DNA of 64,000 bases from Actinomycetota bacterium (GCA_046565595.1 JBKHYG010000121.1:330-64329), one strand, 5' to 3'. Positions 3,306 through 43,437 are shown, counted from the stretch's first letter. The notes: generated by a model from the sequence alone, not told the origin. Numbers and translations are program-made.

Positions 3306-3397
3306 TCTGCGCGAAGGTCTGTTCGGGGAGGTTCTGCCGTTACCCAAGGTCGCCCAGGCAGGATGCGGGGGCGCCCAGGACGAACCCTGAGTGCCAA

Positions 3398-3406
3398 GGG
3401 GTATCC
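3398..3406 (+). promoter_or_regulatory. candidate -10 element GGGTATCCT upstream of the HTH gene
   Basis: The 9-mer GGGTATCCT contains a TANNNT hexamer ~38 nt upstream of the ATG at 3444. The same 9-mer recurs at 3674. Confidence 0.3.
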
Positions 3407-3443
3407 TCCAGCGTTGCGGAGGAAGCCCACTGGGACTGGAGCG

Positions 3444-3656
3444 ATGCAAGTGGCAGATCGAGACGAGCTGTTCATGACGCCTACGGAGGCGGCCGACAGG
3501 CTGCGCGTCTCCAAGATGACCGTCTACCGGCTCATCCACGGAGGCCACCTACCGGCGGTACAGATCGGCAAGGCCTTCCGGATCCGGTCTGCGGATCTCG
3601 ATACCTATCTAGAGTCCTGCACCGTCAGGGTCGATTCGGCCAACGGGGTCGTCTAG
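3444..3656 (+). CDS. excisionase/MerR-type helix-turn-helix DNA-binding protein
   Basis: The translation has the excisionase-family HTH signature (MTPTEAADRLRVSKMTVYRLIHGGHLPAVQIGKAFRIRSADLDTYL). An HTH gene next to bS22 is a conserved actinobacterial arrangement. Start chosen at the internal ATG at 3444; 3474 is an alternative. Confidence 0.7.
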   Translation: MQVADRDELFMTPTEAADRLRVSKMTVYRLIHGGHLPAVQIGKAFRIRSADLDTYLESCTVRVDSANGVV

Positions 3657-6798: not shown

Positions 6799-8304
6799 TC
6801 AGCGTCCGAGTGCGAAGCGACGAACCCCGACCGCTAGGCCAAGGAGCGCTAGCGCCCAGACGGCCTTGCTCTCGACACCCGTCTTCGGCACGCATGATCC
6901 GATGCAGACCGGCTTCACATTGGTCGCGGCGACCGCAGCCGTGGCGCTGGGCAGATCGACCGTGATCGACAACCCGCTCGGGGTGAAGTCGCTCTTGGTG
7001 AACTTGGGGATCACCGAGCCACCCGAGTTGATCGACATCAGCTTCTCGTAGTTCGGAAGGGCAGGCGCGATCCGCAGGCGCAGTGAGTTGGCGGTTGCCG
7101 TAGCGAGCGTTCCCGCCGGGCTGACCTTCTCTTCGTTGGCCAGCTTCTCGAGCGTGATACCAGCGGTCCCGTACGCGAGGTCGAGTGCGTTCTCGAGTTC
7201 GGTGACAGCCGCCCCGAGTCCGAGGTTCTCAAGCGTCTGACCGCCCGCGTCCTTCAGCGTCTTCGGGTCGAGCAGGCGTGCGAGATCCTCGCTTGAGACA
7301 TGGACACCAAGCAGGCCACCAACATCCAGGTTGACCACATCGGTCTTGGAATCGGCCTTGGCCGAAGCCTCACCCTTGACGCCATTGGCGAACGCGCTCG
7401 CCTTGACCTCGATCGAGTCGGCGGTCACCCAGCCGCCGAAGATCCCGAGGTCGACGATCTGCGTCAGCGAGGTCGCACGGAGACCATCGAGGGTCTTCGC
7501 GGGCTCGTCGGACAGGTTCGCGGCACCGGCCAGCACGCGACCCGAGATCAGGTCCGCGGTGCGGATGTCCGGCAGAGGCTTGATGTTGCCGACGGTGATG
7601 ACACGGTCGAGTTCGTCCTTGATCGGCTTCAAGGCGGTGATGCCATCGAGGGTGGACTTGACCGTGTCGATCGAGTTGTTGACCACCGGGAGGACGCTTC
7701 CGTTCACGGTGGTGCGAACGGTGTTCAGCGCGTTACCGACCGCTGCCAAGGCCGCTCCTTCGCCGATGAGCGACTCGAGCTTCAGGCCGATGTCAACGAT
7801 CCCGGTGGTACCTTGCGTGCGCAGGTTCCCGGTCGTGCGGCTGAGCGCGCCAGCGACATCTACCGAGCCCAGGGCCAAGGGAGCGGGGAGTTCGATCCGC
7901 GTCTTGGCAAGAGATGCCTCGTCTGCGCACGAGGTCGAGTCGCAGCGGGAGGACGACTTGGGCATGGAAGTGTCGCCCAACAGCGGAGCTGCCCACGAAG
8001 AGGCTGCGCCCGTCGCGTTGGTGCGAGTCACATCACCGTAGTTCGATGAGATGACCAGGGTCTGTGAAGTAGCCCCTAGGTCAAGGGCTGGCATCGCCGT
8101 GACCGGATACCCGGCGTCTAGGAGCGCCTGGCGAACCTGAGCCACCGAAGGGATCGTCACGACGACCTTCATGGCTTCTGAATACGCCTGCCCGTTGATG
8201 ACGGGAGGGATCGCGCTCTGCGCGGAGGGCATGGACATCGCGAAGAGACCCGTGACTGCGAAAGCCATCGTGGTCACTCGCTTGGTGAGCGAACGCTGCT
8301 TCAT
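6799..8304 (-). CDS. secreted Ala/Thr/Gly/Leu-rich protein with an N-terminal signal peptide and a sortase-like C-terminal sorting signal
   Basis: 501 aa. Signal peptide MKQRSLTKRVTTMAFAVTGLFAMSMPSAQSA. C-terminus has VPKTG, then a ~20-residue hydrophobic segment, then RRFALGR. Confidence 0.6.
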   Translation of the reverse strand: MKQRSLTKRVTTMAFAVTGLFAMSMPSAQSAIPPVINGQAYSEAMKVVVTIPSVAQVRQALLDAGYPVTAMPALDLGATSQTLVISSNYGDVTRTNATGAASSWAAPLLGDTSMPKSSSRCDSTSCADEASLAKTRIELPAPLALGSVDVAGALSRTTGNLRTQGTTGIVDIGLKLESLIGEGAALAAVGNALNTVRTTVNGSVLPVVNNSIDTVKSTLDGITALKPIKDELDRVITVGNIKPLPDIRTADLISGRVLAGAANLSDEPAKTLDGLRATSLTQIVDLGIFGGWVTADSIEVKASAFANGVKGEASAKADSKTDVVNLDVGGLLGVHVSSEDLARLLDPKTLKDAGGQTLENLGLGAAVTELENALDLAYGTAGITLEKLANEEKVSPAGTLATATANSLRLRIAPALPNYEKLMSINSGGSVIPKFTKSDFTPSGLSITVDLPSATAAVAATNVKPVCIGSCVPKTGVESKAVWALALLGLAVGVRRFALGR

Positions 8305-8523
8305 ATCTCTCCGAACTCCAGGTCCATCCCGAAGGGGTCACCTTCGAAAGGTGGTTGGTGCATACTTAGATTCGCCGCTGATGACCGCGACCCCTCCGTC
8401 GCAAATCGGGACAACAGCCCTCATGACTTCCCGGTTCTCCACGATGCCGCGGTGTGTGTGAGGCCGCTGACGGTCACAGTATGCCAAGGAATCGGGGCTT
8501 CGGGTAGTCCCATCTCGCCAGTA

Positions 8524-8551
8524 GAAACGAAAGACTCGGACCTTTCGTTTC
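8524..8551. repeat. perfect 10-bp inverted repeat (GAAACGAAAG-N8-CTTTCGTTTC) in a relatively AT-rich intergenic region
   Basis: Read directly from the sequence. It lies between the 3' end of the anti-sigma gene and the 5' region of the secreted-protein gene. Confidence 0.5.
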
Positions 8552-8671
8552 GCTCCCCAGCAGATCTTGCCAGGGAATCTCCAGGTCGTATGGGGTAGAT
8601 GGGGCTTCTCGGCCTGCCCGGTGCCCCCGAGGGAAGAGTTGTTCGACTCGTCAGAGCAGTTTATCGACTGG

Positions 8672-9820
8672 TCAGAGCGGCTGGGTGAATTCCTCGATCA
8701 GCCGCCGGAAGGGGTCTTCCAATTCGTCGTCGATGCGGCCAGGCAGGTTCGGGATCCGGTCGGGATCTGGGACCGGTTCGATCCGAGGCGGCTCGGGACG
8801 CGGGGCCGTGGTCGGGCGAGGCGCCGGCGGGGGGCTCGGCTCTGGCGGGGTTTTGGAGAAGCCTGGATCGATGCTCGGAGCCGGACACACGCCAGCGCAT
8901 CCAGGCGGGGGTCCACCGCCCAAGCCAGGTCGCGTCGGATCTTGCTCGGGGGAGCATCCGACGCAGCCGGTGGTGATCGTTGCGGTTCGCTCTGCGGCCC
9001 GCTCTATGGTCGCGATCGCTTGCAGCAACAGGGGCTTCGCGGCGGCCGGGACAGCTTCTTCAAGCCCGACCAGCCGGTCATGCTGAACCTCTAGGAACTC
9101 GGTCAAGGCGGGGAGCGCTTCTGCGGCGCCCGCGACTCCGTCTGCTTGCGCCGCCAAGATGAGGTCGGTCCCGCGCATGGTCTGGATCTCGAGGTCGTCC
9201 ACGGGTATCTGGAAGAGTGAGGCTCTCGTCTCGTTGCGCTCGGTCAGACCTTCGATCTCGTCCACTCGGGTGCCCGCGAAACTCAGCATGCGCAAGCCTT
9301 CAGGTAACCCCGACATGCCCCAGGTCTGTACGCGCTCACGGAACCGCTTCACGCCGTACAGCGGGTCACCCGGAAGGGCTGACCCGCTCGCAGCCACCGC
9401 GACCGCCGAAGTCGCCACCAACGATGAGGCGACGGCTGCCACCGCCATCATCCGGGCTGATTCGCGTGCCCTGACCAAGACGCTCTTGCGCGCTCTGGCG
9501 GCCGACAGGGACGCGACCGGCGTGCTGGCACCTGTAAGTTCGGCCCGTAGGCCTCGACGCAATCCCTGCGGCGCAGCCACCTGGATCCTCGGTCTGAGCG
9601 CGGTCGCGAACCCCGCCAGCGCCGCGGCGTCTCCGCTGACCGTCATGCCGTCTAGCGCACGGTCGAAGGCTTCGGCAGCAGATGTCTCAAGTGAGCGGGC
9701 CTCGGTCAGCAGACGCTGACGCAAGGAATCCGAGAAGCCTGCGCGAGGCGAGGTCGAACGCACCGTCTCGCCGAGCTCGGTCAGCGCGCCGTTGATCGTC
9801 CCGACCTGGTCCGGAGTCAT
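8672..9820 (-). CDS. putative membrane-spanning anti-sigma factor (non-ZAS) with a proline-rich C-terminal tail
   Basis: Overlaps the ECF sigma stop by 4 nt, so it is co-transcribed. One transmembrane segment (MMAVAAVASSLVATSAVAVAAS). C-terminal ~90 aa is Pro-rich low complexity. Confidence 0.5.
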   Translation of the reverse strand: MTPDQVGTINGALTELGETVRSTSPRAGFSDSLRQRLLTEARSLETSAAEAFDRALDGMTVSGDAAALAGFATALRPRIQVAAPQGLRRGLRAELTGASTPVASLSAARARKSVLVRARESARMMAVAAVASSLVATSAVAVAASGSALPGDPLYGVKRFRERVQTWGMSGLPEGLRMLSFAGTRVDEIEGLTERNETRASLFQIPVDDLEIQTMRGTDLILAAQADGVAGAAEALPALTEFLEVQHDRLVGLEEAVPAAAKPLLLQAIATIERAAERTATITTGCVGCSPEQDPTRPGLGGGPPPGCAGVCPAPSIDPGFSKTPPEPSPPPAPRPTTAPRPEPPRIEPVPDPDRIPNLPGRIDDELEDPFRRLIEEFTQPL

Positions 9821-10410
9821 GCATCCTCCGTAACGAGCCGGTAGAGGGCTTTGACCGCCCGGAACTGCATGGCCTTTATCGCGCCTTCGGTCTTCTCCAA
9901 CGCAGCCGCAGTCTCTGCCACTGACAGTTCCTGCATGAAGCGCAGATGGATGACCTCTTGCTGTTCCTCATTGAGTTTCGAGATCGCCCTGGCTAGCTCG
10001 GCGCGGGTCACGCTCCGGAGAGCCTCATGCTCTGGATCGACGATCTCGTCGCCACGATGCCCGGTTGGGTCGATCCCAGTGATCTCGAGGCGGACCTTGC
10101 CGGACTTGTAGTGGTCGTAGACCAGGTTGCGTGCGATCGTGATGAACCAAGCGCCGATGTCGCGGCCCTGCCAGTTGAAATCGCCGATCCGACGCAACGC
10201 TCGGATGAATGTCTCGCTGGTGAGGTCCTCAGCCAGGGCCTGGTCGGCATTGCACTTGAAGTAGATGAACCGATACACCTTGTCCAGGTATCGGTCATAG
10301 AGTTTGGCGAATGCTTCCGCGTCCCCGTCGCGCGCATCGTCGACGAGGATGATCACATCGTCCTCACCGGCTCGCATGGAGCCGGTGATGGCGACCGGTT
10401 CGACCGTCAT
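9817..10410 (-). CDS. ECF-type RNA polymerase sigma-70 factor
   Basis: 197 aa with sigma-70 region 2 and region 4 signatures (FAKLYDRYLDKVYRFIY, EQQEVIHLRFMQELSVAETAAALEKTEGAIKAMQFRAVKAL). Confidence 0.85.
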   Translation of the reverse strand: MTVEPVAITGSMRAGEDDVIILVDDARDGDAEAFAKLYDRYLDKVYRFIYFKCNADQALAEDLTSETFIRALRRIGDFNWQGRDIGAWFITIARNLVYDHYKSGKVRLEITGIDPTGHRGDEIVDPEHEALRSVTRAELARAISKLNEEQQEVIHLRFMQELSVAETAAALEKTEGAIKAMQFRAVKALYRLVTEDA

Positions 10411-10504
10411 CCCACCTCTAACATCGTCATTCGGACGCCTCGGGTTGAGCTTTCATCAACGCTGGGCCAATTGCGTCAACATCGCCGCGACCACCGCTGC
10501 TAGC

Positions 10505-10530
10505 AACGCGACCAACAACATCGCGGTTCC
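10505..10530 (-). promoter_or_regulatory. candidate autoregulated ECF promoter (GGAAC-N17-CGTT on the minus strand)
   Basis: The minus strand reads GGAACC (plus 10525-10530), a 17-nt spacer, then CGTT (plus 10505-10508). This sits ~95 bp upstream of the sigma start codon. Confidence 0.4.
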
Positions 10531-10598
10531 TTTTCGCATGTCGGACAAGGTTACGGGCGTGCCCGGTTGCCCGCAATGGCCAAATCGGGATCATTTCT

Positions 10599-12017
10599 AT
10601 GCTTTCGGGGATGCGAAGGGACATCCTCTGCGGCGACGGGGTGATGGAAGTGGTCGTTCCATCCGAATGCCGCATCTTGGGCGCGCCTGAGAGCCTGCCC
10701 GCTCTGGCGGACCCGCACGCCGCGGTTCGGGTTGCCCTCGACGATCCGATCGGTCACGACGGGTTGTCGTCAACCGTCGGTCCCGGGTCGAAGGTGACGA
10801 TCGCACTCGACGATCTGACGATCCCTGTCGTGCCCATGGAACCCGACTTCCGGCGCGTCGCTCTCGAGGTGGTCCTGGAAGAGCTCCACGGTCTAGGGGT
10901 CAAGCCTGAGGATGTGCGCATCGTGGTCGCCAACGCGCTGCATAGGCAGTGGACCCGCAGCGAGTTGGCGACCGCGCTCGGTCCGCTGCTATCCCTGTTG
11001 CCGCCCCAACGGCTGTTCAACCACGATGCATGCGATCCGGAGAGCCTGGTCTACCTCGGTGAGACCGAGCGCGGGTTCGAGGTTGAGGTGAATCGGCTGC
11101 TCGTCGAGAGCGACCAGTTCATCTACATCAACTGCACGCCGTCACCCATGAACGGGGGATGGAAGTCGCTCGTCGTCGGCATGTCCACCTTCCGATCGAT
11201 CCGCCACCACCACCGGCCGTTCCCGTTCGCGCGCGGCCACTCGATCATGGATCCGCACAAGAGCGCCTTCCATCGGCTGCTGGCCGAGATGGGAGAGGTG
11301 CTGATGAGCCATCTCGCTCCTCAGGGCCGCAAGCCGCTCTCGATCGAGTTCGTCCCGACCGGAACGGTCCCGGCCGGTATCGCGGGAGTGTTCGCCGGCT
11401 TCACCCCGGAGGTTCATGAACACACCCTCGAGCTGCTCGCGAGCCAGCAACGCGTCACCGTGGAAGGGCAGAGCGATATCGGGATCTGGGGACTGCCGAA
11501 CCGCGACCCCTACTCGGCGCACTCGCGTATCAACCCGATCCTCGTGGCCAATCTCGCTTGCTCGTACACCTTCGGTCTCTACTCCAACCAACCGCTGGTT
11601 CGAGAGGGCGGTGTCGCCATCTTCGCCAACCCGGTCGATGTCGAGTTCGAGCGGCATCACGCGTCGTACCCGGAACTGTGGGAGCTCTTGACTCGCACCA
11701 CCGACCCGGTCGAGTTGTGGGACGAGTACGCCGAGGATTTCGCCGCCCGACCCGAGTACATCTATGCCTACAGGAAACGCTTCTCGTTCCACGGTGCGCA
11801 TCCGCTGTTCCTGTGGGGCCAGACCCGATTCCCTCGCAAACACCTAGGACGGATCATCTTATGCGGTGGTAGCGACCCGGCGCCGGTCGAACGGATGGGC
11901 TTCACCCACGCGCCAGACATGGACCAAGCTCTGGCCATAGCTAGGAGCGACATCGGCGCCAACGCCAGCACGAGCCTGGTGGACCTACCACCGATATTCA
12001 TCCCCGAGGTGGTCTGA
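10599..12017 (+). CDS. LarA-like (lactate racemase / DUF2088 family) protein
   Basis: 472 aa. Its N-terminal domain resembles the LarA N-domain (DDLTIPVVP, ANALHR like GTHR). Assignment is from memory of the family, not a search. Confidence 0.45.
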   Translation: MLSGMRRDILCGDGVMEVVVPSECRILGAPESLPALADPHAAVRVALDDPIGHDGLSSTVGPGSKVTIALDDLTIPVVPMEPDFRRVALEVVLEELHGLGVKPEDVRIVVANALHRQWTRSELATALGPLLSLLPPQRLFNHDACDPESLVYLGETERGFEVEVNRLLVESDQFIYINCTPSPMNGGWKSLVVGMSTFRSIRHHHRPFPFARGHSIMDPHKSAFHRLLAEMGEVLMSHLAPQGRKPLSIEFVPTGTVPAGIAGVFAGFTPEVHEHTLELLASQQRVTVEGQSDIGIWGLPNRDPYSAHSRINPILVANLACSYTFGLYSNQPLVREGGVAIFANPVDVEFERHHASYPELWELLTRTTDPVELWDEYAEDFAARPEYIYAYRKRFSFHGAHPLFLWGQTRFPRKHLGRIILCGGSDPAPVERMGFTHAPDMDQALAIARSDIGANASTSLVDLPPIFIPEVV

Positions 12018-12888: not shown

Positions 12889-13671
12889 TTACCTGAACGA
12901 TACGACCCGGAGCAACAGACCCACCGCGCGGGACGGAACCGATGTGTCTGAACCCTCTGGTTCCTCGGCCGCTGTCGGCTCAGCTCTGCTGGGTCGCTCT
13001 GCGGGCTTCCCGTCGGCCTTGTTCTCGCTTGACTCCTTAGGGGAGCTCGTCTCGGCGGGAGCCGGTTCACGCCGATGATCGGCGTCCGACTTCTTGCTGG
13101 TGTCACCCTTGGACCGCTGGGCTCCGCCAGCCGATGAGTCGGCCGGGTCGGATCCACCCCCATGGGAGCCGCTACGGCTGCTGCCGCTGCTGGGCGACGA
13201 TGACGAGGATGACGAGGATGACGAGGATGACGAGGATGACGAGCGGGCTCGCCTGACGAACACCTGGGTTACATAGGTCTCCCCAGACTCATCGACCACC
13301 ACGCCCACACCTATCTCGGTATATCCGCCGAGCATGTTCGCTCGGTGCTGCGGCGAAGCCATGAAGGCTTCGTGAAGCATGTATATGTCGCCGCCGACGC
13401 CTACATTCTCGCCGGCTGCCTCCCAGGATCCGGGGATCTCATCACCGAGGTTCTTGTTGTGATAGATCTCGCCGCGCTGCTGCATCCGCTTCGAATGCCT
13501 CTCGGCGATCTGCGACAGATCGTCTCGCAGGATCAGCGCTCTGTACCCGCGCTGGGCGCGTTCCTGGTTGATCATCTCCGCGACCTGGCTCTCTGGGGTC
13601 GCCGCTCGTGCGGCGTTCGGAACCCCGATGAGCCCGATCAGCAAGCATGTGAGTGTGACCGTCCTTCTCAT
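12889..13671 (-). CDS. secreted CAP-domain (SCP/PR-1, YkwD-like) protein with a poly-Ser/low-complexity C-terminal tail
   Basis: Signal peptide present. CAP motifs NQERAQRG, SPQHRANML, GENVGVGG. Followed by a 17-Ser run and a Ser/Glu/Lys-rich tail. Confidence 0.75.
   Translation of the reverse strand: MRRTVTLTCLLIGLIGVPNAARAATPESQVAEMINQERAQRGYRALILRDDLSQIAERHSKRMQQRGEIYHNKNLGDEIPGSWEAAGENVGVGGDIYMLHEAFMASPQHRANMLGGYTEIGVGVVVDESGETYVTQVFVRRARSSSSSSSSSSSSSSSSPSSGSSRSGSHGGGSDPADSSAGGAQRSKGDTSKKSDADHRREPAPAETSSPKESSENKADGKPAERPSRAEPTAAEEPEGSDTSVPSRAVGLLLRVVSFR
13196..13243. repeat. tandem repeat: five perfect copies of the 9-bp unit GATGACGAG, encoding the poly-Ser tract of the CAP protein on the minus strand
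   Basis: Read directly from the sequence: unit copies at 13199-13243, plus a partial copy upstream. Confidence 0.85.
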
Positions 13672-31992: not shown

Positions 31993-32442
31993 TTGACGCT
32001 CGTTGATTACCTGCCCATCTTGATCCTGCTCGCGATCGCAACCGCGTTCGCGGGTCTGTCGATCCTGGTCGCCTCCAAGACCGGCCCAAGGGCTCCATCC
32101 CCCGAGAAACTCGCGCCTTACGAGTGTGGCATCGAACCTGAGCGGGAGCTGGTCGAACGGTTCCCCGTGAAGTTCTACGGGATCGCGATGCTGTTCATCA
32201 TCTTCGACATCGAGATCATCTTGTTGCTGCCCTACGCGGTCATGACACGCGAGCTCGGCATCTTCGGGCTGATGGAGATGGGTGTGTTCCTGCTGCTGCT
32301 GCTCGGGGCTTACCTGTACATCCGCCGGGCGGGCGGCTTGGAATGGGAAGAAGAAGAGACCACCCTGCGGCGGCGTGTCTCGGCGCAGCTCATCCAGCGG
32401 TACAGGACACAGTCGGACAGCGGTGAGAGGCTGGGCGCCTGA
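31993..32442 (+). CDS. nuoA: NADH-quinone oxidoreductase subunit A (with a ~30-aa C-terminal extension)
   Basis: TTG start after a GGGGGAGG Shine-Dalgarno. Three transmembrane helices and the PYECG motif. Confidence 0.8.
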
Positions 32443-32921
32443 TGGGCTGGGAGCAGAACCTCCCCAACGGGATCCTCCTTACGAGCGTAGAGAAGTTCGT
32501 CCAGTGGTCTCGCGCGAATTCCCTCTGGCCGGCGACCTTCGGTCTGGCCTGCTGCGCCATCGAGATGATGGCTACCGGCGCAGCGACCCATGATCTCGCT
32601 CGGTTCGGGATGGAGGTCTTCCGGGCATCGCCGCGCCAAGCCGACCTGATGATCGTCGCCGGCCGCGTCAGCCAGAAGATGGCGCCGGTCCTCCGTCAGA
32701 TCTACGACCAGATGCCCGAGCCCAAGTGGGTCATCAGCATGGGCGTGTGTGCCACCAGCGGAGGCATGTTCAACAACTATGCGATAGTCCAAGGCGTCGA
32801 CCAGATCGTCCCCGTGGACATGTATGTGCCCGGGTGTCCCCCACGGCCCGAGATGCTGATGGACGGCATCTTGAAGTTGCACGAGCAGATCAAGGCGACC
32901 CCGCTGAAGGCGGACCGATGA
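32442..32921 (+). CDS. nuoB: NADH-quinone oxidoreductase subunit B
   Basis: Cluster N2 ligands present ([20 protein letters not shown]). Confidence 0.9.
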
Positions 32922-33478
32922 CGAGCGAAGAGTTGCTAGCGCTTTGCGCACGAGCCTCGTCCGAGGTCGGAGGCTCGCTTGAACCTGTGGATGAGCGAGG
33001 CGTGACGAGCCTGGAAGTGGCCGCGGATCGTTTGGTCGAAGTCGTCACCTGGTTCAGGGACAACGGACCCTTCGAACTTCTAGCCGACCTATCGGTGATC
33101 GACTGGCTCGGGATCAATCCTGACGAGAAGCGCTTTTGCGTGGGGTACATGCTCGCATCGCCACAGCATCCCGCACGGTTGCAACTGCGCGTCTACCTCG
33201 GGTCGCAACAGCCTAAGGTCGCTTCCTTGACCGGTCTGTGGCCGGGTGCGGATGCGCTGGAACGCGAGGCGTACGACTTCTTCGGGATCGGGTTCGAGGG
33301 CCATCCGAACCTGCGTCGCATGTTCATGCCCGACGATTGGGAGGGTCACCCTCAGCGCAAGGACTATCCCCTCGGCGGGATCGATGTTCGTTACGAGCAT
33401 GGGCAGGCTGTCACCCCACCCGATGACCGTGCGAAGCGTTCGACGACCACCTCTGGCTATCCGGGCAGGACCGCATGA
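32918..33478 (+). CDS. nuoC: NADH-quinone oxidoreductase subunit C
   Basis: ATGA coupling. NuoC 30-kDa subunit motifs. The upstream extension in the track was rejected. Confidence 0.85.
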
Positions 33479-34743
33479 GCGAGGTCTTCACCACCGGACA
33501 GGATTGGAGCGCCGCGGTCTCCGAGATCAGCGACGAGACGCTGGTCATCAACATGGGGCCGCAGCATCCGTCCACCCACGGGGTGCTCCGGTTGGTTCTC
33601 ACCCTCGACGGTGAGACGGTGATCGACGCCGACAGCGTCATCGGGTACCTACATACCGGCATCGAGAAGAACGCCGAGGTTCGTACCTGGGTCCAGGGCG
33701 TCACCTTCGTGACTCGTATGGATTACCTGTCGCCGTTCTTCAACGAGGTGGGTTACTGCCTTGCCGTCGAACAGCTGCTGGGGATCGAAGCTCCGCCACG
33801 CGCGCAGGCCATCCGCGTCCTGCTGATGGAGTTGAACAGGATCAGCAGCCACCTGGTCTGGCTGGCGACGACAGGCATGGAGCTCGGAGCGTTGTCGATG
33901 ATGCTCTACGGCTTCCGCGAGCGCGAACAACTCCTGGACATCTTCGAGCACATAACCGGCCTACGGATGAACCACGCTTTCATCAGGCCGGGCGGTCTCG
34001 TGACCGATCTTCCTGAAGGGTCGGTCGAGAAGATCGAGGAGTTCCTGGCCTCGTTCCCCGACCGTCTCGCAGAGTACGAAGGGTTGCTGACCCAGAACCC
34101 GACCTGGATCGACCGCAACCGCGGGATCGGGATCCTCGACGCTCCTACCGCTCTCGGACTCGGCGTGACCGGTCCGCTTCTACGCGCAGCAGGCGTCGAC
34201 TGGGATCTCCGCAAGCAACGCCCATACTGCGGTTATGAGAACTACGAGTTCGATGTCCCGACCGACACCGACGCCGACTGCATGGCCCGGTACCGGGTGC
34301 GTCTGGAAGAGATGCGCCAATCGATGAGGATCGTGCGGCAGGTCCTCGATTCCCTGCCCGCCGGACGGATCATGATCGAGGACCCGAAGATCGCTTGGCC
34401 AGCGCAACTGTCGCTGGGCCCGGACGGGCTCGGGAACGCTCAGGAGTACATCCGCCGGATCATGGGCGAATCGATGGAAGCGCTGATCCAGCATTTCAAG
34501 CTGGTTACCGAAGGCTTCAGCATCCCGGTCGGCGAGACGACCGTCGCGGTCGAGTCGCCCCGCGGTGAGACCTCGTTCCGTGTGGCGAGCGGAGGCAAGA
34601 ACAGGCCTTGGCGCGTCCATGTACGCGACGCCTCCTTCGTGAACCTCCAAGCGATGCCGCACATGGTCCGCGGGTTGCTGGTGGCAGATGTGATCTCGGC
34701 CGTCGCGTCGATCGACCCGGTGATGGGAGGTGTGGATCGATGA
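33475..34743 (+). CDS. nuoD: NADH-quinone oxidoreductase subunit D
   Basis: 49-kDa subunit. N-terminus [14 protein letters not shown] and C-terminus DPVMGGVDR. Confidence 0.9.
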
Positions 34744-35369
34744 GCGGTGGTGGCAAGGCGGATACATCGCTGATGGGGGTACCCCTGATCAGACCGGCCG
34801 TTGCGCCTCTCTCGGATCGGTTCCGTTCCGACGCCGACGAGGTGATCGCTAGATACCCCAAGGGCCAGGAACGCAGCGCGCTACTTCCGCTGCTCTACCT
34901 GGTCCAGGGTGAGCACGGCTTCGTCTCGAGCCAAGGCATCAGCGCCATCTCGGAGATGCTTGGCCTGACCCGAGCCGAAGTGGCGGGCGTGGCCAGCTTC
35001 TACACGATGTTCAAACGGTCGCCGCAAGGAAGATGGTTGATCAGCGTGTGTACCCAACCCGCGTGCGCGTTCGCTGGCGGGACCGAACTCATCCGGAGGT
35101 TGGAGGAGACGCTGGGCGTCGAGCGTGGAGGCACGAGCCCTGACGGCACGATCTCCATCGAAGAGGTCGAGTGTCTATGCGCCTGTGACGGCGCACCGGT
35201 GTTCAGCGTCAACTATGAGAACTACGAACGCATGGCCGTCGAGGACGCCGTGTCGATGGTCGAGTCCTTGAGATCTGGCGGCGAGCCTCCTGCGGGTGCG
35301 CGCGGTGAGATCCCGGCGGACTTCAAGACCGTGTCGCGCCGCATGAGCGGAGTGGAGGCGCCGCGATGA
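34740..35369 (+). CDS. nuoE: NADH-quinone oxidoreductase subunit E
   Basis: Thioredoxin-like [2Fe-2S] Cys ligands ([14 protein letters not shown]). ATGA coupled. Confidence 0.85.
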
Positions 35370-36649
35370 GCGCGACGCTTCAAGAGACCAAGATCCTGTC
35401 CGCCAGATGGGACCGGCCCGACGGCAACACGCTGGCCGGATACCTCGCGACCGGAGGGTACGAGGCGCTGCGCACGGCCCTCGAGATGCAGCCCGACCAG
35501 ATCATCGAGACCGTCAAAGAGTCGAACCTGCGGGGCCGCGGAGGCGCAGGATTCCCGGCTGGACTGAAGTGGTCCTTCATCCCCAAGGACCGTAGACCGT
35601 CCTACATAGTCTGTAATTTCGACGAAGGCGAGCCTGGAACTTTCAAGGACCGCGAACTGGTCGAGCGTGACCCGCACCAGATGATCGAAGGCATGGCCAT
35701 CGCATCCCTGGCGATCGGCGCACACGAGATGTACATCTTCTGCCGAGGTGAGTTCGCCTACGCCGCCCGTGTCCTCGAGCGCGCGATCGCCGAGGCGATG
35801 CAGGAGGGATATCTGGGGAAGGGGATCCTGGGAAGCGACTACGACCTGGATTGCATCCTCGTGCGCGGTGCAGGCGCATACATCTGTGGCGAGGAGACCG
35901 CGTTGCTCGAGGCGATAGAAGGCCGTCGAGGTCAACCTCGTCTCCGCCCACCGTTCCCGGCCACCCACGGACTGTTCAACCTGCCGACCGTCGTCAACAA
36001 TGTCGAGACCTTCGCATGCGTCCCCCACATCATCTCTCGGGGAGCGGAGTGGTTCCGTTCGCTGGGTACCGAGAAGGCGTCGGGAACCAAGATCTTCAGC
36101 ATCTCTGGCGATGTGGAGAAGCCGGGTAACTACGAGGTGCCCTTCGGCACATCGGCTCGAGACCTGATCGAGGGCTTCGCCGGCGGCGTTAAGGGCGGGA
36201 AGGGATTGAAGGCCTTCACCCCCGGTGGCGCATCCTCGACACCCTTCTTCGGCCCCGAGGAACTGGATGTCGGCATGGATTGGGAGTCCGTCCAAGAGGC
36301 GGGGTCCCTCCTTGGTACCGGCGCGATCATCGTCTTCTCCGAGGACAGGTGCATGGTACGAGCGGCCCATCGTTACACGCGTTTCTACGCGCACGAGTCA
36401 TGCGGCAAGTGCACGCCATGCCGCGAAGGGACCTACTGGCTCGAGCAGACGCTCCGTCGGTTCGAGGCAGGCGGAGGACGGGAGGATGACCTCCCGATCT
36501 TGCTGGATGTCGCCAACAGCATCCCGGGGCGTTCGTTCTGTGCGCTCGGTGACTTCTCTGCCGCACCGGTCACTTCGACCGTGAGGCGCTGGGAGGCCGA
36601 TTTCCGCAAACACATTGGCAGCGGGGGAGGCTGCCCGATCGAACCATGA
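35366..36649 (+). CDS. nuoF: NADH-quinone oxidoreductase subunit F
   Basis: FMN/NADH motifs (GRGGAGFP). 4Fe-4S ligands CGKCTPCREG. Confidence 0.9.
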   Translation: MSATLQETKILSARWDRPDGNTLAGYLATGGYEALRTALEMQPDQIIETVKESNLRGRGGAGFPAGLKWSFIPKDRRPSYIVCNFDEGEPGTFKDRELVERDPHQMIEGMAIASLAIGAHEMYIFCRGEFAYAARVLERAIAEAMQEGYLGKGILGSDYDLDCILVRGAGAYICGEETALLEAIEGRRGQPRLRPPFPATHGLFNLPTVVNNVETFACVPHIISRGAEWFRSLGTEKASGTKIFSISGDVEKPGNYEVPFGTSARDLIEGFAGGVKGGKGLKAFTPGGASSTPFFGPEELDVGMDWESVQEAGSLLGTGAIIVFSEDRCMVRAAHRYTRFYAHESCGKCTPCREGTYWLEQTLRRFEAGGGREDDLPILLDVANSIPGRSFCALGDFSAAPVTSTVRRWEADFRKHIGSGGGCPIEP

Positions 36650-38979
36650 GCAACGGCACGGTGACGCTCACCATCGACGATCGCGAGATCACGGTTCCTG
36701 CCGGAACCCTGGTGATCCGCGCCGCCGAGCAACTCGGGATCTACATCCCGCGCTTCTGCGACCATCCGCTACTGGATCCAGCGGGAGCGTGTCGCCAGTG
36801 CATCGTGGATGTCGAAGGGCAGCGCAAACCCCTGACCAGTTGCACCACCGTGTGCACCGAAGGCATGGTCGTGCGCACCCAGCTCTCTAGCGACGCGGCG
36901 GCCGAGGCGCAGCGCAGCGTCCTCGAACTGTTGCTCATCAACCACCCCTTGGACTGCCCGATGTGCGACAAGGGCGGTGAGTGCCCGCTGCAGGATCAGG
37001 CCCTCGAGTATGGCCCCGGCGGCTCGCGCTACATCGACACCAAACGGCGTTTCACCAAGCCCGTAGCCATAAGCCCGCTGATCAAGTTGGATCGAGAGCG
37101 GTGCGTCCTGTGCGCGCGCTGCACACGCTTCAGCGATCAGATCGCCGACGATCCGTTCATCGAGTTGTTCGAACGAGGCGCCCTGGAGCAGGTAGCGATC
37201 TACGAGGATGAGCCCTATCGCAGCGAATACTCGGGCAATGTGGTCCAGATCTGTCCGGTCGGAGCGCTGACCTCGAGCGAGTTCCGCTTCCAGGCTCGAC
37301 CCTTCGACATGACCACGACGGTCTCGACCTGCAACCGTTGTGCGTCTGGCTGTCAGACCCTCGTGCAAGAGCGCCGCGGCCAACTCGTACGGGTACTCAG
37401 CTCGACCGATCCGACCGGGCAGGATGAGTGGATCTGCGACAAGGGCAGGTTCGGGTATCTGTACGCACAGACCCCCGAACGCGTGACCGAACCGCTGGTC
37501 CGCAAAGGTGACGGCTTCGTGGCCGTCTCGTGGGCCGAGGCCATCTCCACGGTGGCAGCGGCGATCCGCGAGACCCGCGATTCGAGGCTCGGAAGTGCCG
37601 TTCTGGGAGGATCGATCTCGACCGATGAGGACGCGTATGCGCTCTCCAGGTTCGCTCGCGTCGTGCTGGCGACCAACGACATAGATCACCGTCTGGGCGG
37701 GTCGACCCCTGAGGACTACGCGGCGCTGGGACAGATCGCCAGCGGCGTCGAGACCGCGGGCTTCGCCGACATCGATGCAGCCGACACCATCGTCATCGCT
37801 GGAGCGGACCTCCGAGAGGTGTCGCCCATCGTTGCTCTACGGATCCGCAAGCGTCTCCACGCGGGCGGCGTCAGGGTCATCGAGGTAGCGCCGCGAGCAT
37901 CTCGGCTGATCGAGAACGGCGCTAGCTGGGTTCCCGTCAAGACGGGAGCAGAGGCCGCAGCACTCCGGAGCCTCGAGTCCGACGGTCGCACCATCCTGCT
38001 GGTCGGTGACGCTCTGATCGGAGACGGCTCCTTCGCGCACGCCTGGAACCTGGCCCTGGATCGGGGTTGGAAGTTCGGGTGGGTGCCGCGTAGAGCGAAT
38101 GCCCGAGGCGCTGTGGCCGCGGGCTGCTTGCCGACCGCTCTGCCGGGAGGTCGCTCGATCACCGAACCCGAGGATCGAGCAGCCGTGCAGAAGGTCTGGA
38201 ACAGCGTTCCGCCCGATCAGCCTGGCAGGGAAGGCGCCGCGATCCTGCGCGAAGCCGCCGAGCTCGGTTTCCTCCTGATCGTCGGCGCAGACCCGGTTGC
38301 TGACGCGGCGGGATCGCTGAAGGCAGCCTCGGGGATCGACGCTGCCGGCTTCGTGGTGTCGATCGACATGTTCCTGACCGAGACCGCGAGGCGCGCAGAT
38401 GTTGTGCTGCCTGCGGCGGCCGTCTACGAGCGGGCGGGTTCGATCACCTCGTGGGAGGGACGGCGCTCGCGGGTGAGAGCCGCGATCGACCCTCCTGGCC
38501 TTGCCCAAGAGGACCGCGAGATACTCGCTCAGATCGCAACCGAGCTCGGACACAGCGGGTTCCCTCGAACGGCACAAGCCGTGCAGGACGAGATGGCGCG
38601 GCTATCGCCCGACGGTGGCGCACCACGACCCGTTCCGACCGAAGCACTCGATCAGACGCCAGCAGAGATGGTGTTGTGCACCTACCCGCTGCTGATCGAT
38701 TCGGGCGCGATGATGCACGGATCCGACGCGCTGGCTGCAACGGCTCATCCGGCCGCCATCGAGATCTCACCCGATGACGCAGCGCGCCTGAACCTGACCG
38801 ACGGGCAACTGGTTCGCGTAACGAGCTCTCACGGGTCGCTGAAGGGTCCGATCAGGGTCGAGGGTCGTGTCGCTAACGGAGTCGTCTTCATCCCGGCGCA
38901 ACATTCCTCCCTCGAGGGCGTGGATCTCCAGGCCGCGAGTGGCGTGACGACCGTCCGGATCGAGAAGGAGGGGCCATGA
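36646..38979 (+). CDS. nuoG: NADH-quinone oxidoreductase subunit G
   Basis: 777 aa. N-terminal 2Fe-2S and 4Fe-4S Cys clusters, followed by a molybdopterin-like domain. Confidence 0.9.
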   Translation: MSNGTVTLTIDDREITVPAGTLVIRAAEQLGIYIPRFCDHPLLDPAGACRQCIVDVEGQRKPLTSCTTVCTEGMVVRTQLSSDAAAEAQRSVLELLLINHPLDCPMCDKGGECPLQDQALEYGPGGSRYIDTKRRFTKPVAISPLIKLDRERCVLCARCTRFSDQIADDPFIELFERGALEQVAIYEDEPYRSEYSGNVVQICPVGALTSSEFRFQARPFDMTTTVSTCNRCASGCQTLVQERRGQLVRVLSSTDPTGQDEWICDKGRFGYLYAQTPERVTEPLVRKGDGFVAVSWAEAISTVAAAIRETRDSRLGSAVLGGSISTDEDAYALSRFARVVLATNDIDHRLGGSTPEDYAALGQIASGVETAGFADIDAADTIVIAGADLREVSPIVALRIRKRLHAGGVRVIEVAPRASRLIENGASWVPVKTGAEAAALRSLESDGRTILLVGDALIGDGSFAHAWNLALDRGWKFGWVPRRANARGAVAAGCLPTALPGGRSITEPEDRAAVQKVWNSVPPDQPGREGAAILREAAELGFLLIVGADPVADAAGSLKAASGIDAAGFVVSIDMFLTETARRADVVLPAAAVYERAGSITSWEGRRSRVRAAIDPPGLAQEDREILAQIATELGHSGFPRTAQAVQDEMARLSPDGGAPRPVPTEALDQTPAEMVLCTYPLLIDSGAMMHGSDALAATAHPAAIEISPDDAARLNLTDGQLVRVTSSHGSLKGPIRVEGRVANGVVFIPAQHSSLEGVDLQAASGVTTVRIEKEGP

Positions 38980-40142
38980 ACGAGGGCCTGCTCATCTCGA
39001 CCATCAAAGCCGTGATCGTCTTCGGAGCCCTGATGGGATCCGTACCTCTGGCCGTATGGGCTGAGCGCCGGGTCGTCGCCTTCATGCAGCAGCGGCTCGG
39101 ACCTAACCGCGTAGGGCCTTTCGGCATCCTTCAAGGCCTCGCCGATGGCGTGAAGCTCTTCTTCAAGGAGGACATCCGGCCGACCAATGTGGACAGAGGC
39201 ACCTACATCGCGGCGCCCATGATGTCGGTGATCCCGGCCTTCCTGTCAGCAGCGGTGATCCCCTTCGGTCCAGACATCACGATCGGCGGCCGTGTCGTCT
39301 CGATGCAACTGGCCGAACTGAATGTGGGCGTGTTGTTCTTCCTGGCGATGGGAAGCATGATGGTCTACGGCGTAACGCTGGCCGGTTGGTCGTCTGGCTC
39401 GGTCTATCCGCTGCTCGGTGGCGTCCGCAGCGCCGCACAGATGATCTCCTACGAGATGGCGCTTGGCCTCTCGGTGGTCGCTGTGGTGATGCAGTCGGGA
39501 ACCTTGTCGACCTCGGGGATCGTGGACGCCCAAGCGGGCTCCTTCCTGGGAGTCCTTCCTGCGTGGAACATCTTCACCCAGCTGCCGGCTTTCCTGATCT
39601 TCTGCGTGGCGGGTCTGGCTGAGACGAACCGAGCTCCCTTCGATCTGGCAGAAGCCGAGAGTGAGCTCGTCGGCGGCTTCCATACCGAGTACTCGAGCAT
39701 CAAGTTCGCGATGTTCATGCTGGCCGAGTACCTACATGTCATCACCACGAGCGCGATCGCGGTGACCTTGTTCCTCGGCGGCTGGCGCGGACCCACGCTG
39801 CCCTTCCTGACACCGCTGTGGCCGCTCGTCTGGTTCGGGCTGAAGCTCGGCTTCATGGTGTTCCTGTTCATGTGGGTGCGCGCAAGCCTTCCACGGGTCC
39901 GCTACGACATCCTCATGCGGTACGGATGGAAGACCCTGCTGCCCGCATCGCTGGGCTGGGTTGCCATCACCGCGGTCCTGCTGGTCCTGAGTTCGGAACT
40001 CGATCGGCCAACGCTCGCCTCCGTCCTCGGCTTGATCGCGGCACTGGTGATCCTGGGGCGTGCCGCGCTTGTGACCTGGCGTCGGTTCGGCACGCTAGGA
40101 CCCCTAGCCCTGATGAGGAAGGTGCGTCATGGCGTTCAGTGA
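38976..40142 (+). CDS. nuoH: NADH-quinone oxidoreductase subunit H
   Basis: NuoH/ND1 signature ([23 protein letters not shown]). Confidence 0.9.
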
Positions 40143-40695
40143 CATCGCAAGAGGGATGTCGATCGTCGCACGGCACCTCTTCAAGAAGCCGGTGACCAAG
40201 AGCTATCCCGAAGACCCCAAGGACCCGTCCCCGCGTTACCACGGTCGTCATGTCCTGAACAGGTATGAGGATGGCCTCGAGCGCTGCATCGGGTGCGAAC
40301 TGTGCGCTTGGGCATGTCCGGCCGACGCCATATTCGTGGAGAGCGCCGAGAACTCTCCGGAGGAGCGGTACTCGCCAGGCGAACGGTACGCGATCGACTA
40401 CCAGATCTCTTACGCGCGGTGCATCTTCTGTGGCCTGTGCATCGAAGCCTGCCCGACGCGCGCACTCACCATGTCGACCGAGTACGAACTGGCCGGACCG
40501 AGCCGCGAGGCTCTCGTCTACACAAAGGGCATGTTGCTGGCCGCACCCAACGAGGGAGCGGCGCCGACACCTCACACCGACGCCGAGGTCCAGGCGAGAG
40601 GCATCGACTACTACGGCGGACCGCAGGCGACCGACCCCCTGGCGTCTTCTGAGCGCGCAGAGCATCTACCTCCGCCGGAACCGGGGGCGCCCTGA
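40129..40695 (+). CDS. nuoI: NADH-quinone oxidoreductase subunit I
   Basis: Two CxxCxxCxxxCP motifs. Confidence 0.9.
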
Positions 40696-41231
40696 TGGAA
40701 CAGTGGGTCTTCTGGCCGATGGCCGTGTTCGCTCTGGCGAGCGCGATGATCGTCATCGTCACTCCCAACGCGGTGCATGCTGCCCTGGCCCTGGTTGCGA
40801 ACCTGTTCTCGATCGCGGTGCTGTACCTGCTGTTGGACGCACACTTCCTGGCTGCGGCTCAGGTGGTGGTCTACGCGGGAGCGATCGTCGTCCTCTTCCT
40901 CTTCGTGATCATGTTGCTCGGCGTGGATCGGCGAGAGGACCTTGCCGAGAAGGTCCCGGGTCAGCGCGCGATCGGCTTGGCATCCGTGCTGGGGATCGGC
41001 GCGATAACCGTCCTGGTCGTCCGTGCGGTCTACGCGACCACGACCTTCGGTGACCTATCTGCTGCGAACGAGAGTGGGAACATCGAGGCGCTCGGTCGGC
41101 TGCTCTTCAGCAGTTACCTCTGGCCCTTCGAGGTCGTATCGGTCCTGTTGGTAGTCGCAGCGATCGCTGCCATGGTCCTTGGGCGCAAGCGTCCAACCAG
41201 GGAACTCACTCATCAGGATCGTGACGCATGA
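40695..41231 (+). CDS. nuoJ: NADH-quinone oxidoreductase subunit J
   Basis: Five transmembrane helices, ND6-like. TGATG coupled. Confidence 0.8.
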
Positions 41232-41530
41232 TCCAGCCCGCACAGTTCTTGGCATTGGCCGCCATGCTCTTCGCGGTCGGTTCGGCTGGCGTGATCCTGC
41301 GTCGGAACCCGCTGGTGATGTTCATGGGGATCGAGCTGATGCTGAACGCGGTCAACCTGACCCTGGTCACCTTCGCCAAGGTGCATGGGACGCTCGACGG
41401 TCAGGTGCTCGCCTTCTTCGTCATCGTCGTCGCTGCTGCCGAGGTGGTTGTCGGACTCGCGATCATCGTGCAGATGTTCCGACGGGTCCGAGGCGCCGAT
41501 GTGGATGATCGGAGTTCGCTCAGATGGTGA
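41228..41530 (+). CDS. nuoK: NADH-quinone oxidoreductase subunit K
   Basis: 100 aa, three transmembrane helices, ND4L-like. Confidence 0.85.
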
Positions 41531-43437
41531 TAGCCCACCAGAGCACACCCGCGATCATCGAGAACGCGTGGATCGTCGTCGCCTTCCCCCTCCTAGGTGC
41601 AGCCTTGTTGTTCGCCTTCGGGCGGAGGATCGGCCGCGGTTCCGGACCTATCGCGACGATCATGATGATCGGATCGGCGGTGGGCTCGCTGATGATCTTC
41701 GGCGAGTTGCTGAAGCGACCGAGCGAACAGAGATCCTTCGTCGAGCCTCTATGGCAGTGGTTCAGCGCGGGCGATGCGAGCGTCAGCATCTCGACCCGTA
41801 TCGATCCTCTGACGGTCATGATGCTGCTGGTAGTGACCTGCGTGGGGGCGCTGATCCACCTCTACTCGGTCGGCTACATGAGGGGCGACGCGCGCGAACC
41901 GCGCTTCTTCGCCTACCTCAATCTCTTCGCGGCCTCGATGCTTGTACTGGTGCTGGCTGACAACTTCCTGGTGCTGTTCCTCGGCTGGGAGCTGGTCGGC
42001 ATGTGCTCGTACCTGTTGATCGGATTCTGGTTCGAGGATCGAGGCAACGCCGCTGCGGCCAAGAAGGCGTTCATCACGAACCGTGTGGGAGACGCGGCCT
42101 TCCTGATCGCGCTCTTCCTGATGCTGTCGACCTTCGGTTCCTTCTCGTTCGAGGTGATCGGGCAGGCTTCCGGCGCGGTCCTGTCCGCGGGCACCGCGCT
42201 GGCGATCGCGCTGCTGCTGTTCGTGGGGGCAGCCGCCAAGAGCGCCCAGATCCCGCTGTATGTGTGGCTGCCGGACGCCATGGCCGGGCCCACGCCGGTG
42301 TCGGCTCTCATCCATGCCGCCACCATGGTCACTGCCGGCATCTATCTGGTGGTGCGTGCGGCCCCCATCTTCGAGGTATCTCCGCTGGCCTCCGATGTGG
42401 TCGCATGGGTCGGTGTCGCGACGATGCTCCTGGCTGGGTTGATGGCGATCGTCCAGGACGACATCAAGAAGATCCTCGCCTACTCGACCGTCAGCCAGCT
42501 CGGCTACATGTTCATCGGGGTCGGAGTTGGAGCCAGCGCCGCTGGTCTCTTCCATCTCGTCACACACGCCTTCTTCAAGGCGTTGCTGTTCCTGGGCGCG
42601 GGGAGCGTCATGCATGCCCTCTCCGGGCGCACCGACATCACCACGATGGGTGGCTTGTTCCGCAAGATCCCGTGGACCTCGGTCACCTTCATCGCTGGTT
42701 GGCTAGCGATCATCGGCTTCCCCTTGACTGCGGGCTTCTTCTCCAAGGACCAGATCCTCGAGGGCGCCTATGTCGCCGACCAGCAGGCCATCTGGATCCT
42801 CGGTCTGGTTGGAGCAGTCATCACCGGGTTCTACATGACCCGCCTGGTTGTGCTGACCTTCTTCGGCAAGCCACGAGATCCGGATCTACATCCTCACGAG
42901 TCGCCTCCCTCCATGGTCTTCCCGCTGGTGTTGCTGGCGGTCGCGAGCCTCGTCGGCGGTTGGCTGATCAACGCGCATCCCGAGGATGGTCGTCTCGTCG
43001 GCTGGCTCGCTCCAGTCCTTGGCCAGCACGAGGCCGCCCACGGGGCACTCTCTGCGACGACGCTGTCGATCATCGCCTCTGGCGCCGGCCTCATAGGAGC
43101 CCTGGTAGCCATCGTCGCGTACGGCTTCCGCCGCTTCGACTGGCAGGCCCGCCGCGAGAGGCCGGGGATCCTCTGGCGGGTTGCCCGCGACAGGTTCTAT
43201 GTCGACCACGCGTACGAGTTCATCTTCACCGGCCTCGGGAAGGTTGGCGCTACCGCGCTTGCCTATGTCGTCGATGCGCGATGGATCGACGGAGCGGTCG
43301 GGTCGGTCGGAGCTGTGTCCACCAGGGTCGCGCAGCTCGCTCGGCGCCTACAGAACGGCCTGGTACGGACCTACGCGCTCGGGATCCTGGCGGGGACGGT
43401 CCTGATGCTCGCGTACATGGTGGGGAGGAACTGGTAG
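41524..43437 (+). CDS. nuoL: NADH-quinone oxidoreductase subunit L
   Basis: 637 aa, antiporter-like ND5 family. Confidence 0.9.

Follow-up and report, generated by a model that had tools for sequence, protein, structure and literature searches.

A BldN-like sigma factor, a putative membrane anti-sigma factor and a candidate wall-anchored surface protein are encoded side by side in uncultured Actinomycetota

The 64-kb stretch of DNA analysed in this study (GCA_046565595.1, JBKHYG010000121.1:330-64329; called the window below, always at its full length) stems from the metagenome-assembled genome (MAG) 'Actinomycetota bacterium' and carries on its minus strand the genes for a sigma factor of the extracytoplasmic function (ECF) type, a putative membrane-bound anti-sigma factor and a large secreted protein with a C-terminus resembling that of a sortase substrate. 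The original prediction, made from the sequence alone, had placed three minus-strand open reading frames (ORFs) in series, and all its coordinates hold: the sigma gene covers positions 9817-10410 and encodes 197 amino acids (aa), the anti-sigma gene covers 8672-9820 (382 aa) and the surface-protein gene covers 6799-8304 (501 aa). The proposed 4-nt overlap of the sigma and anti-sigma genes was borne out and consists of a shared ATGA, which provides the sigma stop codon and the anti-sigma start codon. The 367-bp spacer between the anti-sigma gene and the surface-protein gene (8305-8671) is indeed AT-richer than its surroundings, with a GC content of 58.9% compared to 63.8% for the whole window. 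The 501-aa protein is rich in Ala (13.6%), Leu (11.8%), Thr (9.2%), Val (9.0%) and Gly (9.0%), in line with its earlier description as an Ala/Thr/Gly/Leu-rich protein, and its C-terminus shows the expected succession of VPKTG, a hydrophobic helix and RRFALGR.

The same gene arrangement was found at related loci, which were read over up to ~22 kb each (≤10 kb of flank per side). The order sigma gene, anti-sigma gene, surface-protein gene is present in the window and in L002, L004, L005, L006 (partial), L021, L023, L024 and L026, the surface proteins of the last four loci being only 22-33% identical to that of the window. L027 and L029, which were picked by sigma similarity alone, contain the same trio with surface proteins ending in PTTG and PRTG tails. 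Wherever upstream sequence was available (12 of 12 loci), the surface gene directly follows the sigma/anti-sigma pair. As every related locus reached via the surface protein shows these genes in an unchanged order, the trio is not a chance arrangement.

The sigma factor matched the Pfam families Sigma70_r2, r4 and r4_2 and has no region 3, which corresponds to the two-domain layout of ECF sigma factors. Its best NCBIfam model was TIGR02952, describing the BldN family, with 175.3 bits, and its best match in the PDB was BldN of Streptomyces venezuelae (6dxo_A, E=3e-48), followed at a distance by SigL (1e-14). The identity to BldN amounts to 67% in sigma2, 51% in sigma4 and ~60% over the crystallised core. 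By these comparisons the window protein is classified as a BldN-type sigma factor, that is, of the kind driving surface-coat proteins during Streptomyces development, and this assignment replaces the generic envelope-stress regulon that had been suggested for the locus. We consider it ECF121-like, BldN itself having been assigned to ECF121 (PMC7826278). A metagenome scan with the sigma alignment yielded 80 loci, and the surface-protein family was present in 11 of the 27 that had at least 1.5 kb of sequence after the anti-sigma gene. A genome-contig scan with the sigma alignment, for which over-specific patterns were used, returned only distant sigma factors from other phyla.

About a dozen loci with a different clade of BldN-like sigma factors (among them L060, L068, L076, L080, L082, L086, L090, L093, L094 and L104) have a ~290-aa HAD-like membrane protein in third position, which contains the motif AAFFDVDNTMMQGAS, a C-terminal helix and an Arg-rich tail. 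The replacement of the surface gene by this HAD-like gene in another clade indicates that the trio is lineage-specific and not universal for this type of sigma factor.

The best hydrophobic window of the anti-sigma factor, residues 124-142, predicts a single transmembrane helix preceded by ~123 cytoplasmic residues and followed by ~240 extracytoplasmic residues, which supports the view that the ECF sigma factor is paired with a cognate single-pass membrane anti-sigma factor. For comparison, the published topology of RsbN, the anti-sigma factor of BldN, comprises 117 aa in the cytoplasm, a transmembrane helix and 272 aa outside (PMC6101532). The ectodomain of the window protein is DUF5667-like, with 20.8 bits for Pfam DUF5667, a score under the cutoff. 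This domain was flagged on the anti-sigma orthologues of five other loci, without further remark in L024 and L027 and as weak or faint in L005, L021 and L023; no mention of DUF5667 was found in the literature. Residues ~283-382 contain a GCxxC motif, a Pro-rich linker and a conserved acidic C-terminal tail (IPNLPGRxDDxLE; PDPDRIPNLPGRIDDELEDPFRRLIEEF), which is retained as LPG-x-DD in distant orthologues.

A fourth ORF (10456-10539, minus strand) is separated by 45 nt from the sigma gene downstream of it. It encodes 27 aa with one hydrophobic helix (MRKGTAMLLVALLAAVVAAMLTQLAQR) and was found in the same position in 9 of the 10 first-set loci, its amino acids being conserved though the DNA differs. 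A hidden Markov model (HMM) of the peptide detected this micro-ORF in 11 of 79 metagenome loci, namely in L030-L038, which have the nine sigma factors closest to that of the window, in L107 and, weakly, in L108. The micro-ORF may represent an unannotated small membrane protein of the module. The sequence TTGCGG-N17-TAACCT (10548-10576, minus strand), a putative sigma-70-like promoter, is located upstream of the micro-ORF and the sigma operon. It is conserved in L002, L004 and L005, and analogues of the form TTTxCC-N17/18-TAnnnT were read by eye in L021, L023, L027 and L029. The ATG of the micro-ORF follows the -10 element by 8 nt, so that the transcript possibly has no leader or only a very short one.

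In the five loci in which the sigma and anti-sigma genes do not overlap, the short gap between them contains CGT[CG][AT]C-N16/17-CGTTG, and a BldN-type site with 0-1 mismatch precedes the anti-sigma gene in all five. L021, L023, L027 and L029 have the same two-block motif upstream of the surface gene, and so do the held-out loci L026 and L024. The motif was derived here from the anti-sigma promoters, and the paper reporting the sole experimentally defined BldN site of Streptomyces coelicolor, CGTAAC-N16-CGTTGA (PMC2375139), was found only afterwards; the two are identical. The motif GGAAC-N17-CGTT, which had been predicted for the region upstream of the surface gene, is not present; the conserved motif is CGTnAC-N16/17-CGTT. 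With the latter as the rule, whose chance rate is 0.017 per 350 nt, 15 of 22 loci (7/11 in the first set and 8/11 among the new metagenome loci) have a perfect site upstream of the surface gene. Upstream of the sigma gene, no BldN-type site was found in any of 10 loci. In Streptomyces, rsbN has a BldN-dependent promoter of its own (PMC4255298).

The 501-aa protein has no Pfam match, is annotated as hypothetical in the MAG, which carries locus tag ACLGH3_09395, and is a member of an undescribed family. A word-based search of 5.8 billion clusters returned five relatives, all uncultured, and a repeat search with a 32-sequence profile gave the same 5 proteins and nothing more. A profile search of 1.84 billion representatives yielded 43 family proteins, 23 of them at E<1e-30. 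The 20 family clusters that were looked up have one to three members each, and all of these are from uncultured Actinomycetota. By inspection, the first 31 residues (MKQRSLTKRVTTMAFAVTGLFAMSMPSAQSA, encoded by 8212-8304 on the minus strand) form a putative Sec signal peptide with a basic n-region, a hydrophobic core and the sequence PSAQSA, and comparable N-termini were seen in all homologues. The open frame continues for just 11 codons upstream of the start codon, which we consider sound because the homologue N-termini align from residue 1. The protein contains two pairs of Cys residues, 121/126 and 467/471. The second pair, which directly precedes VPKTG, is conserved in the close relatives of the window protein and absent from most of the family.

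An AlphaFold2 model calculated from a 32-sequence alignment (pLDDT 80, pTM 0.75) predicts a fold made up mainly of long antiparallel beta strands and helical hairpins, the confidence being low for residues 1-29. A Foldseek search with this model against PDB and BFVD gave no credible structural neighbour; outer-membrane barrels and phage maturation proteins appeared with template modelling scores of 0.1-0.17 and were rejected as spurious. The families known as 'choice-of-anchor' are surface proteins that occur with different C-terminal anchors, and one of them, choice-of-anchor P (NF040603), showed a weak likeness to the central beta-rich region of the window protein (22.9 bits, residues 270-334) and of the distant family member P0041 (20.1 bits). 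As both matches are below the cutoff of 27 bits and cover only ~60-90 of 500 residues, membership in this family was rejected. By analogy with chaplins and with the Cwp proteins of Actinoplanes, the ectodomain may alter cell-surface properties.

The C-terminal region encoded by 6799-6891 (minus strand) consists of VPKTG (6891-6877, aa 472-476), VESK, the helix AVWALALLGLAVGV with a hydrophobic stretch of 14 residues, and RRFALGR, followed by the stop codon. When the tails of 33 core family members were aligned with the TG dipeptide as anchor, TG was found to be conserved in 33/33 (T in 32, S in 1, G in all). The pentapeptide follows the pattern x-[P 14/A 11]-[R 17/T/K/V]-T-G-[V 26/L/I], with V, F, P, N, H, I or Y at position 1 and P or A at position 2 in 25 of the 33 members. 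It is followed by 3-6 residues, a hydrophobic stretch of ~14-18 residues and the sequence [RK][RK][FY]A[L]x[RK], so that the family consensus can be written as x[PA]xTG[VIL], helix, RRFALSK. The 32-sequence alignment has just four invariant columns, among them G476, with T475 reaching a conservation of at least 90%, and the combination of TG, helix and basic tail is under selection. The most distant members found by the profile search have LPRTG, LPKTG or LAHTG with a helix and RRR behind it, and those reached independently via the sigma factor carry LAYTG, LPHTG, LARTG, LPFTG or LPRTG. The occurrence of LPxTG and LAxTG at the same place in distant homologues indicates that VPKTG of the window protein stands where homologues have a genuine sortase pentapeptide, with the cleavage dipeptide kept. 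Judged by its conservation, the tail supports a sortase-type signal.

BldN and RsbN form a textbook developmental switch. We consider it probable, with a likelihood of roughly 65%, that the locus encodes a switch of the BldN/RsbN type, with a wall-anchored surface protein from a new family as its conserved neighbouring target. The best explanation for the arrangement as a whole is that the genes for the micro-protein, the sigma factor and the anti-sigma factor form one operon with the surface gene behind it, together making up a conserved four-gene cell-surface module of uncultured Actinomycetota. In such a module, a housekeeping-type promoter would transcribe the operon of micro-ORF, sigma gene and anti-sigma gene, and the ~120-residue cytoplasmic N-terminus of the anti-sigma factor would hold the sigma factor at the membrane, by analogy with RsbN and BldN. 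An extracytoplasmic cue would release the sigma factor, which could then read CGTnAC-N16/17-CGTT promoters, the conserved adjacent target being the gene of the ~500-aa secreted protein. Sec would export the surface protein, whose C-terminal helix and basic tail would retain it. A sortase with its gene in another part of the genome would then most likely cleave the x[PA]xTG motif between Thr and Gly, and the protein would be joined to the cell wall.

Several observations weigh against this reading and are considered here part by part. The TIGR02952 score of the sigma factor lies under the equivalog cutoff of 206.45 bits. BldN carries a long N-terminal pro-sequence that is proteolytically removed (PMC7826278), whereas the window protein lacks a long pro-sequence and has only ~21 residues ahead of region 2; longer N-termini occur in some relatives (L023, L027). 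Neither the anti-sigma sequence nor a 5-sequence profile matched RsbN in the PDB (E≤10), and both failed to match any other chain. The failed match to RsbN is not decisive, as RsbN orthologues diverge unusually fast (PMC4255298). Concerning the promoters, the nominal binomial probability of 4e-22 for the 15 perfect sites in 22 loci overstates their significance because the loci are not phylogenetically independent, and L005 and L006 are without any BldN-type site upstream of the surface gene.

The window itself contains only a near-match to the motif (8524-8552, minus strand), consisting of CGAAAC (8552-8547), N17 and CGTTTC (8529-8524). The mismatch in the -35 element affects an otherwise invariant position, and the site is not significant alone, since a site with one mismatch is expected by chance in about 7.5% of 350-nt stretches and 23 sites with no more than one mismatch were counted in the window. 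The proposed control of the surface gene by the sigma factor is supported at the level of the promoter motif in the majority of the loci and less well in the window copy. The near-match coincides with a perfect 10-bp inverted repeat with an 8-nt loop (8524-8533/8542-8551, GAAACGAAAG/CTTTCGTTTC), which overlaps the putative -35 and -10 elements and is completed by the -35 change. This repeat is specific to the window, as L002 and L004 have just ~5 complementary bases. Further downstream, at 8478-8486 (minus strand), lies the extended -10-like element TGGCATACT, made up of TGn and CATACT. The corresponding sequence G[GT]CATA[CA]T stands 150-272 nt ahead of the surface start codon in 9 of the 11 first-set loci (the window, L002, L004-L006, L021, L023, L027 and L029) despite deep divergence, making it better conserved across the loci than the ECF-type promoter. 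In L021, L023, L027 and L029 it abuts the BldN-type -35 element. An extended -10 and an operator are both conceivable roles for it. Simple scans of the spacer for sigma-70 promoters and intrinsic terminators gave zero matches, and the sigma-70 scan misses the TGnCATACT element because it has no -35.

The 367-bp gap, the TGnCATACT element and the hairpin allow sigma-independent expression or termination at this position. One could accordingly assume that in the window genome the surface gene is driven by a housekeeping sigma factor from TGGCATACT, that the BldN-type site has decayed, as its -35 mismatch, the perfect inverted repeat lying over it and the lack of a site in L005 and L006 would suggest, and that the hairpin at 8524-8551 only serves as the end of the sigma operon. 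We rate this explanation as unlikely but credible. L002 and L004, the closest relatives, retain a perfect CGTAAC-N16-CGTTT at the position aligned to the window site, and the order of the genes does not change within the clade. Lacking a T-tract, the hairpin is not a canonical terminator, and dual promoters are common for BldN targets, for example p1 and p2 of bldM (PMC4125116). Control of the surface gene by the BldN-type sigma factor may extend to the window genome, where the extended -10 element may drive the gene as well.

The remaining points against the proposed module concern the tail of the surface protein. Leu was not found at position 1 of the pentapeptide in any of the 33 core members, none of the NCBIfam sorting-domain models reached its cutoff on the window tail, and neither the 64-kb window nor ~200 kb of related loci contains a sortase gene. 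For the window, the absence of a sortase had already been noted and was confirmed by the lack of a TLxTC motif in any ORF and of a sortase Pfam match among the ~48 window proteins scanned. The original proposal of a non-canonical LPXTG-type signal is supported by the tripartite structure, the conserved TG and the LPxTG/LAxTG motifs of distant homologues, and not by any curated model. These points would also fit a tail that serves as a membrane anchor only, the surface protein being a type I membrane protein that lost its dependence on a sortase after diverging from LPxTG ancestors, and the unusually good conservation of RRFALSK agrees with this possibility. We regard it as rather improbable, since TG is strictly retained among proteins that are 21-35% identical, with the Gly as one of four invariant residues, and a mere anchor would not need TG. 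Moreover, P or A at position 2 is typical of LPxTG/LAxTG signals, and housekeeping sortases are normally not linked to their substrates.

The strict linkage of the three or four genes over deep divergence raises the question of whether the target acts back on the switch. The surface protein, or its anchoring state, might be sensed by the DUF5667 domain or the acidic tail of the anti-sigma factor, providing feedback on supply, with the micro-protein as a membrane co-factor. The conserved extracytoplasmic tail and the Cys motifs of the anti-sigma factor would fit such an interaction, as would the conserved Cys pairs of the surface protein. However, the replacement of the surface gene by a HAD-like gene in some lineages implies that the sigma/anti-sigma pair can work alone, so that we see a small chance for such a feedback. 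That the variant tail is a new sorting signal for a non-sortase enzyme encoded elsewhere, such as a rhomboid-, CPBP- or exosortase-like protease, is very improbable: LPXTG models miss the tail, which gives weak sub-threshold matches to MYXO-CTERM, NPXTG, doubled-motif LPXTG and PFE-CTERM models, and a conserved Cys pair lies just ahead of the motif in the close relatives of the window protein, but homologues at the same locus have textbook LPxTG/LAxTG, the Cys pair is missing from most of the family and no candidate protease is linked to any locus.

Two further sequence elements were considered. A conserved block, GTTGTCCCGATTTGCGACGGAGGGGTCGCGG, lies in the spacer at 8385-8415 (minus strand), ~80-110 nt upstream of the surface start codon and so in the upstream region or 5' UTR of this gene; it is near-identical in L002 and L004, partially present in L005 and echoed in L027 and L029. 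Its interpretation as a riboswitch or leader RNA was rejected, as there was no covariation, a z-score of +1.4 and no Rfam match. Rfam gave nothing relevant for the locus at permissive E-values or for the whole window at gathering thresholds. The sequence GTTGTCC...GGAGG was dropped as a candidate ECF promoter because no consistent -10 follows it.

The module is part of a wider block, which is core chromosome. The conserved order is a CAP-domain protein, a TIM-barrel isomerase and the module, followed on the opposite strand by an acyltransferase, an epimerase, an S-adenosylmethionine (SAM) hydrolase and an HTH_17 protein. The CAP-domain gene (12889-13671, minus strand), a neighbour of the module in all loci, encodes a secreted protein with a ~25-residue run of nearly all Ser and a subsequent low-complexity acidic/basic tail. 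At 10599-12017 (plus strand), divergent from the sigma operon, lies a gene for a homologue of LarA-like nickel-pincer hydroxyacid isomerases/racemases (LarAH14/15/16 model, under cutoff), which occupies the same place in L001, L005 and L023 and is absent from L002 and L004. The small HTH_17 (excisionase/MerR-like) DNA-binding protein of the block is encoded at 3363-3656 (plus strand), and its fold class is presumably that of the Streptomyces developmental regulator BldC. Genes for a Rex-like protein and hem genes are found 5-19 kb from the module loci. For S. coelicolor, papers give the gene numbers SCO3320 for Rex, SCO3323 for BldN and SCO3324 for RsbN. The proximity of Rex-like and hem genes suggests a possible positional orthology with the Streptomyces bldN region, the Streptomyces side of this comparison being taken from papers only.

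Elsewhere in the window, two separate sets of nuo genes for NADH dehydrogenase are present (31993-46385 and 60437-64000, both plus strand), with subunit 3 and the 49-kDa subunit each occurring twice. A 1017-aa protein with a SpoIID domain and a carbohydrate-binding module is encoded at 57272-60325 (plus strand), next to a probable wall glycopolymer locus (47329-57306), in which genes for GT4 glycosyltransferases are clustered with those for a UDP-GlcNAc 2-epimerase and a UDP-sugar dehydrogenase. No tRNAs were found in the window.

ECF sigma/anti-sigma pairs with adjacent targets, the control of surface proteins by BldN and anchoring by sortases are already known. New are the family of the surface protein, the systematic divergence of its tail from the LPxTG that sister clades have retained, the conserved micro-ORF, and the finding that uncultured Actinomycetota possess a close relative of BldN together with identical promoter words. 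No paper was found that links a BldN-type sigma factor with an adjacent LPXTG protein. The tie between a close BldN relative and one predicted wall-anchored protein across many uncultured Actinomycetota suggests an origin for the Streptomyces system. A more far-reaching scenario, which we regard as doubtful, would make the trio an ancestral BldN system whose wall-anchored target preceded chaplins and filamentous development; in the clade of the window, the x[PA]xTG/RRFALSK tail would then constitute a sorting signal of its own for a dedicated sortase with altered specificity, possibly of class F, and the micro-protein would be a third component of the switch not seen before.

With one sigma factor and one target, the module offers a simple model for studying a BldN-type switch, and the undescribed surface family combines a confident predicted structure with no match to solved folds. 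The specificities of class E and class F sortases are still poorly defined in Actinobacteria, and the coexistence of canonical and altered tails within one family constitutes a natural experiment on actinobacterial sortase specificity. For ECF signalling, the micro-ORF provides a concrete candidate for a small membrane protein that has been overlooked.

Among known LPXTG/LAXTG substrates, the closest comparison is with those of class E sortases, the long chaplins ChpA-C, and with CwpA, CwpB and SspA of Actinoplanes. The window family shares with them a tripartite signal after a Sec-exported domain, P or A at position 2 and, in its distant members, true LPxTG or LAxTG motifs. It differs in that Leu never occurs at position 1, that LPXTG HMMs do not score the tail and that RRFALSK is much more conserved than is usual for such tails. 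No likeness in sequence to chaplins or Cwp proteins was noticed, though no direct comparison with CwpA and CwpB was made. The genes of the Actinoplanes substrates are not linked to a sortase gene (PMC13251363), as in the window loci; CwpA and CwpB, which are substrates of sortase E, are set apart from the window family by their described length and architecture (PMC13251363). AMIS_11010 and AMIS_36440, encoded beside class F sortase genes of Actinoplanes, are secreted proteins with a helix and a basic tail and no recognisable pentapeptide, and the authors proposed them as sortase F substrates (PMC13251363). Their tails provide a precedent for divergent actinobacterial sorting signals, yet their genes adjoin those of their sortases, whereas the window family has no linked sortase.

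The system as a whole is most similar to BldN/RsbN (ECF121), which drives expression of chaplins, rodlins and bldM. According to a review, convincing BldN orthologues occur only in morphologically complex actinomycetes (PMC4255298). The host of the window module is an uncultured member of the Actinomycetota. The window sigma factor stays under the equivalog cutoff of the BldN family and is without the long pro-sequence, no sequence similarity between the anti-sigma factor and RsbN could be detected, the sigma gene is preceded by a micro-ORF, and the target is a folded protein of 500 aa in place of a small chaplin or rodlin. In both systems, on the other hand, the putative or established targets are located at the cell surface, and a Rex or Rex-like gene lies nearby, as SCO3320 does in relation to SCO3323. 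The sigma factors are ~60% identical and share the promoter words CGTAAC-N16-CGTT, each is accompanied by an adjacent single-pass anti-sigma factor of the same topology, and in both cases a promoter of the type read by the sigma factor itself belongs to the anti-sigma gene and not to the sigma gene.

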